A stretch of DNA of 64,000 nucleotides, taken from NCBI GenBank assembly GCA_014161675.1, contig GCA_014161675.1_4760.1. One strand, written 5' to 3'. The stretch's first letter is position 1; each line of letters starts with the position of its first letter. Both the position numbers and the translations under genes were made by a program. Under the pieces are notes generated by a model, which saw nothing but the letters and a program-made list of their open reading frames with translations, was not told where the DNA came from and ran no database searches. Positions 47,585 to 61,940 of this stretch are shown piece after piece. This DNA comes from a phage.

Positions 47585-49314
47585 ATGACGCATTAACATC
47601 ATTTCGCGGGATGCGCAAGGAAGCGGAAGAAACCCCGATTGATAAACTTAACAAATTAGATAAACTTGATTCTATTGATAATTTGCAAGCCGCTACCGAA
47701 TTGGTGGCGGAGACAGTAGAACAAAAATCTAATGAAGTTGTTGGTGCGGTAGAGGATAACACCGCAGCCAATGAATTGACGGCAGAAAATACACAATCTA
47801 CCGCTGGCAATACCCAAAAAACTTATGAAGAATTGCAAAAACTCAATAATTTCTCTTCTCAGATGAATGAGAAATTACGTGGTTTTGGTGTTATGATGGA
47901 ACGTAGATTTGGTGTTGTCAGTAAAATGGCTAGCGGTATTGGTGCGATTGAAGAAGCACTGAAAAAACCGGAACAACCGCAAACAATGCCATCACCTCAG
48001 CCAGTTTTGCCTACTGTACCGGAACAGCCTAATAATGACAACTATCAAGGTCTTCCAAAGAAAAAACCAGATGTTGAGGAACGGAAGAAAAAGAACGCCG
48101 CAGATAAGCGCAATGCGGATTCTATGGAAAATCTTCTTAAAGTTGTTCGTGGAGGATTTAAAGAAACCATAGGTATCTCTAATAAGGTCTTAGGGATGTT
48201 ATTTAAGATCACCTTGACCGCTATGGCAGAAGCCGCAAAATGGGGCGCTATTTTGATGGGTATTGTTTTTGCCATTGATACCCTTATGATTCATTTCAGA
48301 TATTGGAGTGATTTATTCGAAACAAAATTTGATGAATTTATGGATAAGGCCGGAGAATGGGCTGGACCAATTAGCGATATCTTAACCACGATTCGTCAAG
48401 TTCGAGATTATTGGTCTAAAGGCGAATATGGAGAATTAATTAAATCTCTTGTTATGGGTATTGGTGATGCATTCTATAAAACCTTTATCCAACTTGATCG
48501 AATTATCACTACTGGTATTGCTAAAATTCTTCGCATGATCCCCGGTATGGGTGATTATGCCGATAAGTTAGAATACGGTGCTTTAAAGTCTGCTGTTGCT
48601 AAAGGCTATAAGCCAAATGAAAGAGAACTCGAATTAATGGATAAGGTCGAGTCTGAACACGAAGAAGACAAATATGGAGAGCGCACAGGATGGACAGGAA
48701 AAGCCCGTGATATTGGCGAAGCTATTGGGGATTCTATTAAGGATAAAGTTAACGAAGGTCTTGTTAGTCTGGGCTGGAGAGATCAAAAGGATGTTGACGC
48801 AGAGAAACGACAAGAAGAATTAAAACGCGGGGAATACAAGTCTGTTTCTGCTGAACAACGATCTGCTAGTCGTAAACTTAAAATTAAAAGCGAGGGAGCG
48901 ATCAATAATATTAATGAAGTTATGGAGAATTTGAGCGGTGACTATGACAAAGAAAGAATGGAAGAGTTGAAAAAGGATATTGATGTTTACCGTGAGCAAG
49001 TTCAAGATCCTACATTAGTTGAAAGTGATCGTTCTCAGTTAGAGCGTCTTATTGAAAAATTTGATGAGATGTATGCTGATAAAACTAAGGGTGTGGTTCC
49101 AACCAAACCTGTTCCTGCAACTGAAACGGAAACAGCAAAACAAGCGGAACGTACTGAACAAATGCAGAAACAAGCTGCAATCCAGCAACAAACGACAAAT
49201 CAGACCTCAAACGTAAATAATACACAAATTGTAACAAACAATAGAACTATTAAACAGGGTGCACCAACAACTAGAATTGATGCCCCCGGTACAATTAATA
49301 TGGGGAACTTTTAA
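47581..49314 (+). CDS. 29: Tail tube length determinant / tape measure gp29
   Basis: 577 aa (T4 gp29 590 aa), internal hydrophobic segment and Gln-rich C-terminus. Confidence 0.8.
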   Translation: MNDALTSFRGMRKEAEETPIDKLNKLDKLDSIDNLQAATELVAETVEQKSNEVVGAVEDNTAANELTAENTQSTAGNTQKTYEELQKLNNFSSQMNEKLRGFGVMMERRFGVVSKMASGIGAIEEALKKPEQPQTMPSPQPVLPTVPEQPNNDNYQGLPKKKPDVEERKKKNAADKRNADSMENLLKVVRGGFKETIGISNKVLGMLFKITLTAMAEAAKWGAILMGIVFAIDTLMIHFRYWSDLFETKFDEFMDKAGEWAGPISDILTTIRQVRDYWSKGEYGELIKSLVMGIGDAFYKTFIQLDRIITTGIAKILRMIPGMGDYADKLEYGALKSAVAKGYKPNERELELMDKVESEHEEDKYGERTGWTGKARDIGEAIGDSIKDKVNEGLVSLGWRDQKDVDAEKRQEELKRGEYKSVSAEQRSASRKLKIKSEGAINNINEVMENLSGDYDKERMEELKKDIDVYREQVQDPTLVESDRSQLERLIEKFDEMYADKTKGVVPTKPVPATETETAKQAERTEQMQKQAAIQQQTTNQTSNVNNTQIVTNNRTIKQGAPTTRIDAPGTINMGNF

Positions 49315-51304: not shown

Positions 51305-51312
51305 TAAGCGAA

Positions 51313-51340
51313 AGGCGGGGATTATCCCCGCCTTTTTATT
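51313..51340. terminator. Bidirectional rho-independent terminator between gene 54 and minus-strand lipoprotein gene
   Basis: AGGCGGGGA-tta-TCCCCGCCT followed by TTTTTATTTT. Confidence 0.7.
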
Positions 51341-51821
51341 TTGCTAAATCATTGCAATATTTTAGTGCCTTAGTTTGAAATTCTGCGCTGTTAAGTTCTT
51401 CATAACGGTCATAATCACCGTTTAATGCTGCCTTTCTTGCTTCTTGCTCTATCTGCATGTCAGACATGATAATACAGCGATCCCGTGCTTTCATCTTCTC
51501 AAGTTGTATAGACTCTTCTTTCTGCTTGCGCAATTCTTCTTGACGCTTCTTTTCTTCTTGTGCTTTCTCTTCCCGCGCTTCTTTGATTGCATCCTTGAAC
51601 ATCTGCGTTTGTGGTTCTAAACCAACTTTAACGCGATCCACGTCTCGACGTTCCATTTTAGAAATAAAGCACGATTCGATCTGATCATCACTTGCATATG
51701 CTGCTTTACATTCACGAAGCAAGAAAACCGGATCTGATTTAGCATTCATCATAGCTTCCATGTTGGCACAACCAGTAAGCATGAATGCAGCCGCAAGACC
51801 AATCAGTTTAATCATTTTCAT
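51336..51821 (-). CDS. Predicted lipoprotein with coiled-coil region
   Basis: Signal peptide with lipobox LTGC; Glu/Lys-rich helical middle; start overlaps upstream ART gene stop (ATGA). Confidence 0.6.
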   Translation of the reverse strand: MKMIKLIGLAAAFMLTGCANMEAMMNAKSDPVFLLRECKAAYASDDQIESCFISKMERRDVDRVKVGLEPQTQMFKDAIKEAREEKAQEEKKRQEELRKQKEESIQLEKMKARDRCIIMSDMQIEQEARKAALNGDYDRYEELNSAEFQTKALKYCNDLAK

Positions 51822-52642
51822 TTAGTCACCTCACCGAAAATTGTAAATTGTCTACGATTCTCATCACCGAAAGATTCTACTACGTCGTTTACCTTGACGC
51901 AAGTCCCGCGCGGTAAAATTACTTCACATTCGCAAGGATTCCATGCAATTGACCCAACAACAAAACCTTTATGATCTTTTACGTCAATTACCCATGATAC
52001 ATTACAAGAATGTTGCATCTTTCCGGTCATTGATTCATATCGATTCTCACAATAAAGGCTAGTGCTGTTTGATAACCATCCTCCAAAGATGATCGGTGTC
52101 ATGCTGGTAGATACAAAGTTTTTAAAGGTAAACTCCTTATCTTCAATGATACGCTCTATTGTCTGAATGTCAAGATGTTGACCGCGATAAAGAGTACCGT
52201 TTAACTTTTCGGTTTTATCCATGACGCAATCCATCAAATCGACAATCTCTGATATCTCATCGGTCATGTCTTCTTCCCCTAAGAGAGCACCATTTACCCA
52301 TTCGTATTGCTCAGACACATAATCACAGATTGCATTATATTCTGCTGGGGTTATGTTGTTATGTTTGTAATGTTTGAATACATTATCTCCAAAGTCTTCG
52401 GAGTGTACTTCATACATCACATTAATGATTTTCTTGACAAATCCATAATCTTGTGTCTCACGCTCAAGGAAGCGGATAACCTTCACATAATCATCAAAGT
52501 TAATCTGATCGCTGATCATCTCAGTGATCATGTAACCATTAATACCCTCAATGTCATATGTTTCGATGTAATTATCCATACGTTCCATCATTGATTCGCG
52601 TGATTCTTCCGAAAGACGAAAATCCTGTAATTTCTTGAACAT
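51818..52642 (-). CDS. Putative mono-ADP-ribosyltransferase (Alt/Mod-like R-S-E type)
   Basis: LYRGQ (Arg), FVSTSMTP (STS) and ECEVILPRG (catalytic Glu) in the same order and spacing as the alt catalytic domain. Confidence 0.65.
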   Translation of the reverse strand: MFKKLQDFRLSEESRESMMERMDNYIETYDIEGINGYMITEMISDQINFDDYVKVIRFLERETQDYGFVKKIINVMYEVHSEDFGDNVFKHYKHNNITPAEYNAICDYVSEQYEWVNGALLGEEDMTDEISEIVDLMDCVMDKTEKLNGTLYRGQHLDIQTIERIIEDKEFTFKNFVSTSMTPIIFGGWLSNSTSLYCENRYESMTGKMQHSCNVSWVIDVKDHKGFVVGSIAWNPCECEVILPRGTCVKVNDVVESFGDENRRQFTIFGEVTK

Positions 52643-52721
52643 TTTAAACCTCCCATATAACAGAAAACGGGGGCTAGTATAAAACTAGTCCCCGTTTGAG
52701 TCAACCATTATTTCTTAAAAA

Positions 52722-54773
52722 TTACATTTTAAATTTATCTGGCATTGCGTCTACAGATACCAGATCAGCGATAAGCTGACGTAGAGTTGCCTTATCTGCT
52801 TTCTTACGTTCGGTTTTAGCTTCGCTAATGAAGCTGGAGAAAGACAGGTCAGAAGCAGGTTTAATAACACCTTCACGGATGAATGCATCACCGTCCGCGA
52901 TCATCTCGCCAGATTCTTGTAATGCTGCCAGTTCATTTTTGTTCATAATATGTGCCTCAATGTAATAAGTTTCTTGTGAATCCGTCGATGCCGTAGCACG
53001 AGTTACCGTATCAAAGGATAACACAACACCGCGAGGAAGTAAAATCTCGCATTCTTTGTAAGCAAATGCTTTGTTACCTACTGGCAATACAGGGATGTTT
53101 TCCGCGCCAGCAATGGAGAAAGCAACATTAGCGCCACCTTCACCGCGAGAGCCAGCCATAGAGTCAACACCAGCAACGGCACTAGCCACGTTTGCATTCC
53201 AGCCGCCAAAAATGTTAGGTGCAAGGGAAGTGCTCACATAGTTTTTAAAGTAAAACGCTTTTTGCTTACGTGCAGTTTCCCACATTTGCGACCGGAAGTC
53301 CATACCACGATACAGAATAGTACCCGGATCAAGTTTAACGCCATAGTTGGAGAAGGCATTATCCAGTGCATCGCACATCTTGACCAATTCTTCTGGATCT
53401 GCGATGCCTTCAAACTCTTCCAGCTTACGGTCGGTTAGGAAGTTGTTCATATTGATGTATGCTGCATCGGCATATTCGCTCAACACAAAACCTTCCGCGC
53501 CTGGCAGATCAAGATCAATATCTGCCATCATTTCACCCATGTTGCTAGCAATTGCTTCAAACATACCGGAGGCAACATTACGTAGGGCATCGGTTTTAAT
53601 CTGGGTGATATGACTACGCAGCATTTCAGCTTTTACATCTGCTGGCATAGACTGGTCTACTCGATCCATTGCCAGGGCGGTGATCTTGTTTTCGAATACT
53701 TCCTCGCTCATGATTTCTTTTAAGCGTTTGACCGAGGCTGCGATAACTTCCGCAGACAATGGATCATATTGATCCTGAACTTTTACCAGTTCGCTTACTG
53801 CGTATTTTGCATCGGCTTCGCTTTCAAAAATAGTACGCATGAAACCATAGCGAGTGATAATATCACTTGTCCAGTCATTCAGAGAACGAGCGGTTGAACG
53901 TTCTAAGGCTTGACGGTCAATCAGAGTATTAAACTGTTTCTTAGGTTCTGCTTCGGTGATATCTTCTTCCGGTTTAAGATTAATTTTTTCTGGATGATTC
54001 ACATAGTCGCTGTTATAGGTCGCTTGAGTTTTCAGCATTTCTTCTTTAGTCAAACGAGATTTAGCCGCTACGCGTTGTTCTGCTTCCGCGTTTCGTTCTT
54101 CTTCTGACACAAGACTAGCCGCATATGCCTCATCTTTAGTCAGAGATTCACCAGTAGCCTTAGATACCCAGCGATCACCTAAATCACTTTCTACTTTAGT
54201 GAACAAGGATTCATCAAGTTTAATCCCTTTAATCTTATCAATCGCCATCCCGCGACGCTTGACAACAACTAAAGCGATCTTTTTGCTGGTCATTACTTCC
54301 TGCTGGAATACTTCAAACTTCGGTGTACGACGCACCAAACGCTCTATAACGCGCTTAACCAGTTCGGTCTTACCTTTCATGCGGGATACGTTAAAACGGA
54401 ACATAACAGCGTCTAATTGCGCTTTACGGGCTGTTTCCATAACCACATCAAAAGCACTTGACATAACTGCAATCGGGTTATCGCCTAGACCATTTTTAAG
54501 CTGTACAATACGACCGCTTTTGTTCATTTCGCACAGTACAACATGTGCGGTCTTGTCACCCATACGAATGATTTTAGGTGTTTTGTTGGTGAAGTTACAA
54601 AGACGGACAATCACATCTTTATCGCGTGTCTGTACTGCAAAAAGCTGTTTAGGATTCTGCTTAGGCTTTAAGCACTGTACCGGAGCAATCCTGCCAAAGT
54701 TTTCTTCCTCTTCCGTCAACAGCCATTTCTCGAAAGATTCAATCATTAGATCGTCGATTTCTAAGTTAAACAT
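52722..54773 (-). CDS. alt: ADP-ribosyltransferase Alt (packaged RNAP-modifying enzyme)
   Basis: 683 aa (T4 Alt 682 aa); catalytic LYRGMDF, YVSTSLAP, ECEILLPRG motifs; position next to gene 54. Confidence 0.8.
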   Translation of the reverse strand: MFNLEIDDLMIESFEKWLLTEEEENFGRIAPVQCLKPKQNPKQLFAVQTRDKDVIVRLCNFTNKTPKIIRMGDKTAHVVLCEMNKSGRIVQLKNGLGDNPIAVMSSAFDVVMETARKAQLDAVMFRFNVSRMKGKTELVKRVIERLVRRTPKFEVFQQEVMTSKKIALVVVKRRGMAIDKIKGIKLDESLFTKVESDLGDRWVSKATGESLTKDEAYAASLVSEEERNAEAEQRVAAKSRLTKEEMLKTQATYNSDYVNHPEKINLKPEEDITEAEPKKQFNTLIDRQALERSTARSLNDWTSDIITRYGFMRTIFESEADAKYAVSELVKVQDQYDPLSAEVIAASVKRLKEIMSEEVFENKITALAMDRVDQSMPADVKAEMLRSHITQIKTDALRNVASGMFEAIASNMGEMMADIDLDLPGAEGFVLSEYADAAYINMNNFLTDRKLEEFEGIADPEELVKMCDALDNAFSNYGVKLDPGTILYRGMDFRSQMWETARKQKAFYFKNYVSTSLAPNIFGGWNANVASAVAGVDSMAGSRGEGGANVAFSIAGAENIPVLPVGNKAFAYKECEILLPRGVVLSFDTVTRATASTDSQETYYIEAHIMNKNELAALQESGEMIADGDAFIREGVIKPASDLSFSSFISEAKTERKKADKATLRQLIADLVSVDAMPDKFKM

Positions 54774-54812
54774 TTTATATCCTCTAGTTGATAACCTATA
54801 AACCTATATTTA

Positions 54813-54838
54813 TGAAAAAGGGGCTTAACGCCCCCCCC
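54813..54838 (-). terminator. Rho-independent terminator (minus strand) after ORF 54844..55056
   Basis: Minus-strand GGGGCG-uuaag-CCCC followed by UUUUUC; same module as 20918 (+) and 58840 (-). Confidence 0.6.
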
Positions 54839-54843
54839 ATTTA

Positions 54844-55056
54844 TTATAATGCACCATCGAGCAATTGCTCTAAGGTGTATCCTGAATAGTCTTTTTCAAT
54901 CAGGGTATATTTTCCTACTCGTTTAATCCAGCCACGCATTTCAACGTATTCTGCGTAGTTGATGGTGCGCGTTGTTCCATCTTCCAGTAATGCAGTACCG
55001 ATTTCGTTAATGCGGTCATAAGTTACGTCGGTAATGATGATTTCGATGTTAGCCAT
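54844..55056 (-). CDS. Hypothetical small protein
   Basis: 70 aa ORF with promoter cassette upstream. Confidence 0.5.
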   Translation of the reverse strand: MANIEIIITDVTYDRINEIGTALLEDGTTRTINYAEYVEMRGWIKRVGKYTLIEKDYSGYTLEQLLDGAL

Positions 55057-55376: not shown

Positions 55377-55895
55377 TTAGTTATTTTTTAATTGCTCATC
55401 TTGCAATAGGGCAATCACATGCTGGCGATGTTCTTCCGATTGAGGCACACCGAAAAAGTTTGTTTTGTAGAAATACTCTAATCGGTCTTCTCGTGTGCTC
55501 TCTTCCATCATGATCGCGGGTAGTCCGAGATTTCGGAAACGTCGCTTTTCTGCTGGCGTAAAATCACTGTAATACAACATAGAATCATCATTACCAGCAA
55601 TGCTAAACTCATCCTTCATAAAGGAGAATATTGCGTTTAAACGCTGTTTACCGTCCACGATTTCGATCTCATAGCGAGAGCCATCATCAATCTTAGCCAT
55701 TGCGATAGCACCAACCGGAAAATCATTAATCAGGTTTTCGATAAACATACGTTTGTTTTCTGTGTCCCATACTAAAGGACGCTGATAATCTGGGTTCATG
55801 TTGATATAGCCATCTTCTAACCACGCCTCATAAACAGAGATTACAAAGTTTTTAGTATTGGTATAGTAACGGCGTTTAGGTGTTAAACGGTTCAT
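55377..55895 (-). CDS. DUF262/ParB-like (GmrSD N-terminal-type) domain protein
   Basis: DYQRPLVWD ... FPVGAIAM ... DGKQRL match the DUF262 signatures ((D/E)YQR..VW and DGQQR); start placed at MNRLTPKRR (RBS AGGAGA) rather than ORF-track start 55931. Confidence 0.55.
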   Translation of the reverse strand: MNRLTPKRRYYTNTKNFVISVYEAWLEDGYINMNPDYQRPLVWDTENKRMFIENLINDFPVGAIAMAKIDDGSRYEIEIVDGKQRLNAIFSFMKDEFSIAGNDDSMLYYSDFTPAEKRRFRNLGLPAIMMEESTREDRLEYFYKTNFFGVPQSEEHRQHVIALLQDEQLKNN

Positions 55896-55896
55896 G

Positions 55897-56229
55897 TTAT
55901 AGTCTCCTGAATGGATCATCACGTAAATCAATATCTTTTAAGAACTCATCCCATGAATGGCGGATATTGTTCTTAATTCTCCAGATAAGAGCAGGGATTG
56001 AACGCTCTCCCATCTGGAAGTATGGATCATATGATCCGTATGCCCAATATGCTACTACAATTCCACAATCAGCGCAATAGTATTCTATTTCACTTGCTGG
56101 CGACCAAAGTCCATCAATATGATCGGTGATCTTGCTTTCGATGTTATGGCTATGACAATCAGGGCAACGGATGCAATGACCTTGTTTATCGTAATTTGAC
56201 GTTAGCGAATACTTAAACAATCTCATCAT
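55897..56229 (-). CDS. Zinc-ribbon protein
   Basis: 110 aa with CIRCPDC ... CADC (two CxxC pairs); start overlaps upstream gene stop. Confidence 0.5.
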   Translation of the reverse strand: MMRLFKYSLTSNYDKQGHCIRCPDCHSHNIESKITDHIDGLWSPASEIEYYCADCGIVVAYWAYGSYDPYFQMGERSIPALIWRIKNNIRHSWDEFLKDIDLRDDPFRRL

Positions 56230-61911: not shown

Positions 61912-61940
61912 AGTATAGGGGATCACCGATCCCCTGTCAA
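61912..61940 (-). promoter_or_regulatory. Sigma70-type promoter cassette with palindromic spacer
   Basis: Minus-strand TTGACA-GGGGATCGGTGATCCCC-TATACT; identical to the cassette at 55340..55368. Confidence 0.65.

Follow-up and report, generated by a model that had tools for sequence, protein, structure and literature searches.

A predicted lipoprotein with divergent, exchangeable alleles and an Alt-derived ADP-ribosyltransferase downstream of alt in a Krischvirus genome

In T-even phages, the internal-protein (IP) locus combines a conserved capsid-targeting leader with a variable mature part. In T4-like phages, duplications of the ADP-ribosyltransferase gene alt have been recognized: Nolan et al. 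(2006, PMC1524935) listed RB49ORF183c, 44RRORF188c and T4 alt.-1/alt.-2 as paralogous copies, and GenBank record AY343333 labels RB49 ORF183c as 'similar to C-terminal part of T4 Alt protein'. In addition, the PeSLs (promoter-early stem-loops) of RB49 and phi1 are experimentally strong early promoters and terminators (Arbiol et al. 2010, PMC2839356). Here, we describe a locus that recalls each of these systems in a 64,000-nucleotide (nt) stretch of phage DNA (GenBank assembly GCA_014161675.1, contig GCA_014161675.1_4760.1; the whole stretch is referred to as the window), where alt is followed by a second ADP-ribosyltransferase (ART) gene, ART2, and by the gene of a predicted lipoprotein. That a second ART gene stands beside alt is already known, having been published in 2006 as an alt paralogue. 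Beyond that listing and the GenBank annotation, nothing further on ORF182c or ORF183c, the RB49 counterparts of the two genes, was found in the papers searched.

The window is a Krischvirus (RB49-like, T4-like) genome; a 1.6-kb region shows 99.7% identity to Krischvirus RB49 and 98.5-99.2% identity to dozens of RB49-like coliphages. Both open reading frames (ORFs) pointed out in a preliminary description of this DNA, which gave no strand, are real and on the minus strand; they lie immediately downstream of alt and are convergent with gene 54 on the plus strand. The locus comprises the following features:

52722..54773, minus strand: alt, 683 aa, full-length with N-terminal domain and C-terminal tail (PHROG 802, E 2e-179)
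51818..52642, minus strand: ART2 (RB49 ORF183c), 274 aa, R-S-ExE ADP-ribosyltransferase paralogous to the catalytic domain of Alt
51336..51821, minus strand: predicted lipoprotein (RB49 ORF182c), 161 aa, from the ORF list, its lipobox and PHROG 16112 (function not known)
51818..51821, minus strand: ATGA, the ART2 stop overlapping the lipoprotein start (sequence checked)
51829-51832, minus strand: Shine-Dalgarno (SD) sequence GAGG of the lipoprotein gene, 7 nt upstream of the start
51310..51336, both strands: bidirectional intrinsic terminator of gene 54 (plus) and the lipoprotein gene (minus), 12-bp stem with seven GC pairs

The window Alt is 27% identical to T4 Alt across the full length (BLASTP, E 2e-61). 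The shared terminator was also predicted in the supplement of Nolan et al. (2006), as '54-><-RB49ORF182c'. The stop/start overlap had been correctly described, and the junction of the two genes is tight in divergent relatives too (overlaps of 1 or 8 nt, or a gap of 1 nt). The order alt-ART2-lipoprotein-gene 54 is kept in relatives with no more than 42-63% identity in Alt and ART2, and the ART2-lipoprotein pair is syntenic in every relative found.

On the reading favored here, to which we assign a probability of roughly 55%, the two genes form one early unit in which ART2 is Alt-derived and the lipoprotein is an envelope arms-race factor; the latter would be co-transcribed with ART2 yet functionally independent of it. 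The preliminary description proves largely correct. Its ART is an ordinary enzyme that had been described before; the lipoprotein, an orphan, carries an informative population-genetic signature.

Lipoprotein alleles exchanged as a cassette

The mature domain of the lipoprotein exists as at least three ancient alleles, about 30-50% identical to one another, and phages that are otherwise 99% identical swap these as a cassette. This allelic cassette is a new observation. Its borders were located by 30-nt sliding DNA identity between the window and phage G37-3: values of ~99% outside give way to ~40% from about 51790 to 51340. The cassette and the identities of the window to G37-3 and to a further phage, JK32, are as follows:

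51340..51790, minus strand: hypervariable cassette, the coding part of the mature lipoprotein, bordered by the signal-peptide codons and by the stop codon/terminator
Alt: 99.3% to G37-3, 99.3% to JK32
ART2: 100% to G37-3, 97.8% to JK32
Lipoprotein: 32.6% to G37-3, 29% to JK32
gp54: 99.4% to G37-3, 86.5% to JK32

The JK32 lipoprotein is a third allele type, 48.6% identical to the G37-3 allele. The RB49-type allele (at least 95% identity) is carried by 51 of the 59 Krischvirus records, and the other eight have alleles at ~30%. Synonymous divergence (dS) is about 2, and thus saturated, within the cassette, compared with 0.04-0.07 in the flanking genes. Because of this saturation, the divergence is attributed to old alleles moved by recombination, and accelerated positive selection in situ is ruled out as its cause. 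Within one allele class, the ratio of nonsynonymous to synonymous divergence (dN/dS, omega) is 0.10, showing that the lipoprotein is constrained.

The arrangement may be compared with the IP locus of T-even phages, where a conserved N-terminal targeting signal likewise appears to anchor the swapping of diverged mature domains. In the present gene, however, a Sec/lipoprotein signal peptide takes the place of the capsid-targeting sequence, and compartment and function differ. The crossovers of the allele swap are not located at PeSLs but at the signal-peptide codons and the downstream terminator. An association of the allele with the gp38 adhesin/receptor type was also considered and is unsupported: phages with the RB49-like gp38 carry allele A (that of RB49) in ~11 cases and allele B (G37-3) or C (JK32) in 3, and those with the gp38 type of ~82% identity carry them in ~10 and 4 cases, respectively (roughly 11:3 versus 10:4).

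The protein itself begins with the signal peptide MKMIKLIGLAAAFMLTG, directly followed by Cys, with n-region MKMIK, h-region LIGLAAAFM and a lipobox of LTG before Cys18; signal peptide, lipobox LTGC and charged helix are all present as originally described. All homologues, including those of only ~30% identity, have a lipobox (LTGC, LNGC, INGC, LVGC, LFGC or MTGC). The +2 residue is Ala in the window lipoprotein and Ala or Ser in all those inspected, with no Asp in 12 distinct mature N-termini. The protein is predicted to be exported, lipidated at Cys18 and, with no Asp at +2, sorted to the outer membrane. Its mature form has 143 residues, and four further Cys residues (38, 51, 116 and 156) are invariant. 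The AlphaFold2 model (predicted local distance difference test, pLDDT, 87.5) is all-helical with a 62-residue helix; on this prediction, the lipoprotein would be a helical rod stapled by disulfides. As in Braun's lipoprotein, the C-terminal residue is Lys in 9 of 12 distinct full-length sequences (ending in DLAK, DLIK, GIK, SKK, KLK or CSK), and Asn takes this position in the JK32/Whisky allele and in P0056; the Lys may bear on cross-linking to peptidoglycan. In the window, the codon of the C-terminal residue is at 51339-51341 (minus strand).

The lipoprotein family is tiny and phage-only, and it corresponds to PHROG 16112 of unknown function. In an exhaustive hidden Markov model (HMM) search, only 10 representatives among 1.84 billion were recovered, and none was of another kind. 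Against Pfam, NCBIfam and PADLOC, the matches of the lipoprotein either stayed below threshold or fell on the signal peptide, and a BFVD fold search returned only its own family. The JK32 allele matches NCBIfam Lpp/OprI below threshold (E 2.5e-4, 21.5 bits versus a cutoff of 43). The match of the lipoprotein to PHROG 1119 (Cor; E 0.006) is confined to residues 1-45, that is, the signal peptide, and no stretch passes alone. When all ORFs of the genome were scanned with a strict lipobox pattern, only the ORF182c lipoprotein was returned; pseT.2 has a lipobox after an internal Met.

A separate observation concerns the tape-measure protein gp29, as lipoprotein residues 75-143 resemble a charged gp29 segment (about residues 386-463; 48736-48969, plus strand; tblastn E 0.018). 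Mimicry of gp29 by the charged helix was rejected: against residue shuffles the window allele gives z 5.3 and five other alleles give 0.15-1.6, so that the resemblance is put down to composition or chance.

The Alt-derived ADP-ribosyltransferase

ART2 is an intact ADP-ribosyltransferase of the R-S-ExE type with a predicted C3/Vis/iota-like fold. Its catalytic residues are encoded at the following positions:

52184..52186, minus strand: catalytic Arg153 (LYRG motif), invariant in a nine-sequence alignment that includes Alt
52103..52111, minus strand: S178-T179-S180, invariant in ART2 homologues and Alt
51923..51931, minus strand: E238-C239-E240 (ExE, the arginine-specific signature), with both Glu residues invariant

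The middle residue of ExE varies among homologues (C, N or A). All motifs earlier quoted as common to this ORF and Alt are present (TLYRGQ, FVSTSMTP and PCECEVILPRG in ART2; LYRGMDF, YVSTSLAP and ECEILLPRG in Alt), and the resemblance is much greater than chance would give. Pfam PF03496 (ADPrib_exo_Tox) matches ART2 residues 82-266 with 59.3 bits versus a cutoff of 23.4 (E 4e-16). The best PHROG is 15144, 'ADP-ribosyltransferase' (E 3e-198), and the Alt family, PHROG 802, ranks second, with profile positions 330-602 colinear with ART2 residues 8-268. In BLASTP comparisons, ART2 is 37% identical to the adjoining Alt (E 1e-16), and its residues 98-257 are 31.5% identical to T4 Alt (E 1e-23), while hhalign profile-profile alignment matches Alt 396-610 to ART2 66-273 with a probability of 99.9% (E 2e-32). 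The N-terminal half, which had been called unrelated to Alt, is not so: homology spans residues 66-273, the BLASTP alignment already reaches residue 98, and similarity goes undetected for at most the first ~65 residues. In the alignment including Alt, the first ~300 and last ~70 residues of Alt have no ART2 counterpart.

The AlphaFold2 model of ART2 (pLDDT 83; predicted TM-score, pTM, 0.81) has as its top Foldseek matches in the PDB Vis, C3bot, C3lim, Certhrax, CDTa, iota Ia and C2-I (E 1e-10 to 1e-9, probability 1.00). Structure prediction and alignment, the check suggested in the preliminary description, thus returned an ART fold in which Arg and Glu are kept and invariant across homologues and Alt. 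Comparison with Alt, ModA and ModB had been proposed as well; the relationship to Alt holds (hhalign 99.9%), and none to T4 ModA or ModB appears, since BLASTP finds no significant similarity (E 0.41 and 1.2). That this is an additional R-S-E ART is borne out by motifs, Pfam match, predicted fold and purifying selection, although it is not new.

With respect to three related lineages, ART2 has a dN/dS of 0.04-0.10 at dS 0.15-0.31. Within Krischvirus, tblastn finds it at least 99% identical in 46 records, and uncultured relatives carry homologues at 42-63% identity. Given this dN/dS and these distant homologues, ART2 is a functional, maintained gene under strong purifying selection. Although fragments of alt duplications occupy the same locus in T4, the view that ART2 is a functionless, decaying remnant like T4 alt.-1/alt.-2 is effectively refuted by the selection analysis and retains next to no probability, the 274-codon frame being intact, the catalytic residues all invariant, and the gene, with its own promoter and SD, being kept by distant relatives.

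ART2 would represent the Alt catalytic domain (Alt ~396-610) copied as a protein of its own, with Arg, Ser-Thr-Ser and Glu-x-Glu kept. It shares with T4 Alt this homologous domain (31-37% identity, E 1e-16 to 1e-23, R-STS-ExE motifs), the locus between gene 54 and alt, and the C2/C3-toxin-like fold. In contrast to T4 Alt, it has only 274 aa (Alt ~683), has no counterpart of the ~395 residues at the Alt N-terminus or of the tail of ~70 residues with which Alt ends (final residues PDKFKM), and has an early-type promoter of its own; because of these differences, it is probably not packaged or injected. It is not an Alt orthologue (~680 aa, PHROG 802), as the full-length architecture is absent, only Alt 396-610 is covered, and it belongs to the separate PHROG 15144.

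Orthology with ModA or ModB is ruled out by the non-significant BLASTP matches. A tblastn search with T4 ModA detected no homologue in the RB49-like genome, and ModB is present away from the ART2 locus (AY343333 8917-9420, tblastn). With Alt, ART2 and ModB present and ModA not detected, the RB49-like phage has three ARTs, like T4. Within this set, ART2 may fill the niche of an early, small, non-packaged ART, by likeness to ModA and not by homology. Like T4 ModA and ModB, it is small and stand-alone and is presumably expressed early from a sigma-70 promoter. It differs from them in belonging to the Alt/VIP2 lineage and in its genomic location, with BLASTP E values above 0.4; it would thus resemble ModA in expression and size but descend as an Alt paralogue.

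Tandem alt duplications immediately downstream of alt are also represented by T4 alt.-1/alt.-2 and 44RR ORF187c/188c. Unlike ART2, which is an intact catalytic part, T4 alt.-1 and alt.-2 are short remnants that derive from the Alt N-terminal part and show no similarity to ART2. The T4 slot between alt and gene 54 (locus L005, 5743-6451: alt.-3, alt.-2 and alt.-1) contains fragments of the N-terminal part of alt, of which alt.-1 and alt.-2 match window Alt residues 27-126, and it holds no lipoprotein. Since its contents differ from those of RB49, alt duplications have filled the same slot differently by lineage. A tblastn search across phages gave 1634 Alt-like matching places in 1140 records, many Tequatroviruses having two of them, so a second Alt-like gene is common in T4-like phages.

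In function, ART2 most likely mono-ADP-ribosylates arginines of host proteins, and it is most likely made early in the infected cell and not packaged into the capsid; we infer arginine specificity, timing and lack of packaging from sequence features. T4 Alt modifies many host proteins besides RpoA. This breadth lends some weight to a possible but less probable alternative, in which ART2 acts mainly in counter-defence, ADP-ribosylating and thereby inactivating host toxins or defence proteins rather than serving as a ModA-like modifier of RNA polymerase and translation factors. The region of the ADP-ribosylating turn-turn (ARTT) loop, which reads AWNPCECE in ART2 versus AFAYKECE in Alt, and the recurrent Alt-like duplications in T4-like phages are in line with such a role, as is the description of viral ARTs as fast-evolving conflict enzymes (PMC9503650). 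However, conservation within Krischvirus (at least 99% in 46 records; omega 0.04-0.10) fits a conserved host target better. Under the favored reading, ART2 is chiefly of use as a natural 'minimal' Alt catalytic domain whose expression is separate from that of the packaged enzyme, so that targets can be compared; otherwise it adds little.

Promoter-like elements around the locus

The 79-nt spacer between alt and ART2 contains the following elements:

52649..52710, minus strand: PeSL-type composite element with AT-rich tract, promoter boxes, hairpin, T-run and SD
52699-52704, minus strand: -35 box TTGACT, with 17-nt spacing to the -10 box
52676-52681, minus strand: -10 box TATACT, within the hairpin loop and 3' arm
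52665-52697, minus strand: G/C-rich hairpin overlapping the -10 box, followed by a T-run
52649-52653, minus strand: SD GGAGG upstream of the ART2 ATG

In its succession of AT-rich tract, sigma-70 boxes, stem-loop overlapping the -10 box, SD and start codon, the spacer matches the PeSL architecture and is a predicted promoter-terminator. The same promoter-hairpin element is found in six divergent loci, in which ART2 is only 42-63% identical, with the -35 and -10 boxes preserved and compensatory changes in the stem (GACTAG/CTAGCC, GTTCAG/CTGACC and GAACAG/CTGTCC). The supplement of Nolan et al. (2006, PMC1524935) predicts an early promoter, Pe:112388, exactly here, with a low score of 9.3, as well as terminators after ORF182c and upstream of alt.

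The sigma-70 promoter embedded in the terminator hairpin after alt would drive transcription of ART2 and the lipoprotein gene, and the early transcript would end at the bidirectional terminator common to gene 54. The two genes probably constitute an early operon separate from alt. Their co-expression, proposed from the outset, gains support from a tight linkage that is conserved and from the presence of just one promoter element upstream. By its upstream signals, alt may be late, with its product packaged, and ART2 and the lipoprotein early.

Several further promoter-like sequences were noted. Upstream of alt, at 54807-54846 (minus strand), a terminator-like hairpin GGGGGGGGCGTTAAGCCCC with a T-run is followed by CATAAATA (54807-54814, minus strand). 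The latter stands 33 nt before the alt start, has one mismatch to the late-promoter motif TATAAATA, and is tentatively regarded as a candidate late promoter. Perfect copies of TATAAATA occur eight times on the plus strand of the window and not at all on the minus strand. A late promoter upstream of alt was not found in the Nolan 2006 supplement or in published RB49 promoter lists.

Inside ART2, about 470 nt into the gene, a near-consensus sigma-70 motif is present at 52146-52173 (minus strand; TTGACA-16-TATCAT, 11/12), which may give a lipoprotein-only transcript or be a chance occurrence; promoter-like sites are no commoner here than in shuffled sequence. Elsewhere in the window, a composite TTGACA-GGGGATCGGTGATCCCC-TATA(A/C)T, which has variants and a spacer taken up by a G/C hairpin, is repeated on the minus strand with -35 boxes at 61940, 61003, 57745, 57501 and 55368. 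These TTGACA-GGGGATCGGTGATCCCC elements stand upstream of small early ORFs and are the PeSL cassettes of RB49/phi1.

Candidate roles of the lipoprotein

Considering that deeply diverged, recombining alleles are found in a protein predicted to be exported, the cassette pattern most likely points to a role in an envelope arms race, either the exclusion of superinfecting or competing phages or the masking of a surface structure. Exclusion of competing phages is our best guess as a candidate function. A tblastn search with T4 Imm and Sp detected no homologue in the RB49-like genome, although this method is insensitive for small, fast-evolving proteins. A broader and more tentative version of this idea is that the lipoprotein founds a new class of envelope exclusion factors in T4-like phages without recognisable Imm and Spackle, whose cassette-swapped ancient alleles set 'exclusion types' that determine which of the co-circulating Krischviruses can superinfect. 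If so, such types would be a balanced polymorphism comparable to the immunity groups of temperate phages but in a strictly lytic phage.

Among described proteins, Llp of T5 and Cor of phi80/N15/T1-like phages may be the nearest parallels, as small phage outer-membrane lipoproteins, early in a lytic phage and with a plausible surface role. In contrast to these, the ORF182c lipoprotein shares no homology with them, is about twice as long and is modeled as an all-helical rod, and its alleles do not track the adhesin.

It is unlikely, though not without grounds, that the lipoprotein acts on the host envelope instead, as an Lpp-like tether between outer membrane and peptidoglycan or a stabiliser during infection, by inhibiting a host defence located in the envelope, or by modulating vesiculation or the timing of lysis. 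The 62-residue helix, the C-terminal Lys in 9 of 12 sequences, the independence of the allele from adhesin type and the weak Lpp/OprI match of the JK32 allele are compatible with such a role. Nevertheless, the Lys is not universal, being Asn in JK32/Whisky and P0056, the Lpp match is under the cutoff and takes in the signal peptide, and a housekeeping function would not obviously keep ancient alleles of ~30% identity.

Far less probable is the suggestion, made in the preliminary description, of a lipoprotein that serves ART2 as partner or immunity factor; a chaperone, or a relation like that of toxin-immunity pairs, falls under the same head. Stop/start overlap and tight linkage in every relative found speak for it, but synteny is weak evidence, as gene order is generally conserved in T4-like phages. 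Moreover, the predicted compartments differ, ART2 having no signal peptide and the lipoprotein a conserved export signal and lipobox, and three lipoprotein alleles accompany essentially the same ART2 (97.8-100%) with no co-variation; in G37-3, ART2 is 100% identical and the lipoprotein 33% identical. These two facts disfavor a partner or immunity role.

Slightly less credible still is an outer-membrane spanin (Rz1-like) or other lysis component, which a phage-encoded outer-membrane lipoprotein of coiled-coil character might suggest: RB49 has separate pseT.2/pseT.3 orthologues of the T4 spanin pair, pseT.2 with lipobox ALSSC and a proline-rich segment, on which ground this role was rejected, and the lipoprotein has no adjoining inner-membrane partner, no C-terminal transmembrane segment, an early rather than late promoter upstream, and 143 mature helical residues, large for an o-spanin.

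Several points weigh against the favored reading of one early unit with a functionally independent envelope factor. Its early timing draws on a promoter consensus for which the published HMM score is low (9.3). Two Alt-like loci are frequent in T4-like phages, so that functional equivalence of ART2 and ModA would be only an analogy. The absence of Imm and Sp comes from tblastn, and no homology or fold match in Pfam, NCBIfam, PADLOC, PHROG or BFVD ties the lipoprotein to a known exclusion protein. The lack of association between allele and gp38 weakens the simplest model, in which the lipoprotein blocks or masks the receptor of its own phage; this model is not supported. Finally, the synteny of the pair in all relatives found leaves some room for a functional link between ART2 and the lipoprotein.

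The lipoprotein gene is the one gene of the region that differs radically between otherwise identical coliphages of the type used in therapy. Besides the spanin candidate, no other protein with a strict-pattern lipobox was found in the genome, and the family of the lipoprotein numbers ~10 sequence clusters worldwide. If the lipoprotein controls superinfection or envelope properties, the behaviour of Krischviruses in phage cocktails would be affected, and the three or more natural alleles in isogenic backgrounds would offer a tractable system for studying exclusion specificity.

An observation unrelated to the two genes concerns a 184-aa ORF at 55377-55931 (minus strand), two genes upstream of alt in the region of RB49 ORF187c. 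Its homologues in related contigs (L015-L017) match the Pfam family GmrSD_N (PF03235, DUF262), and the ORF would accordingly encode a phage ParB/GmrSD-like nuclease domain.

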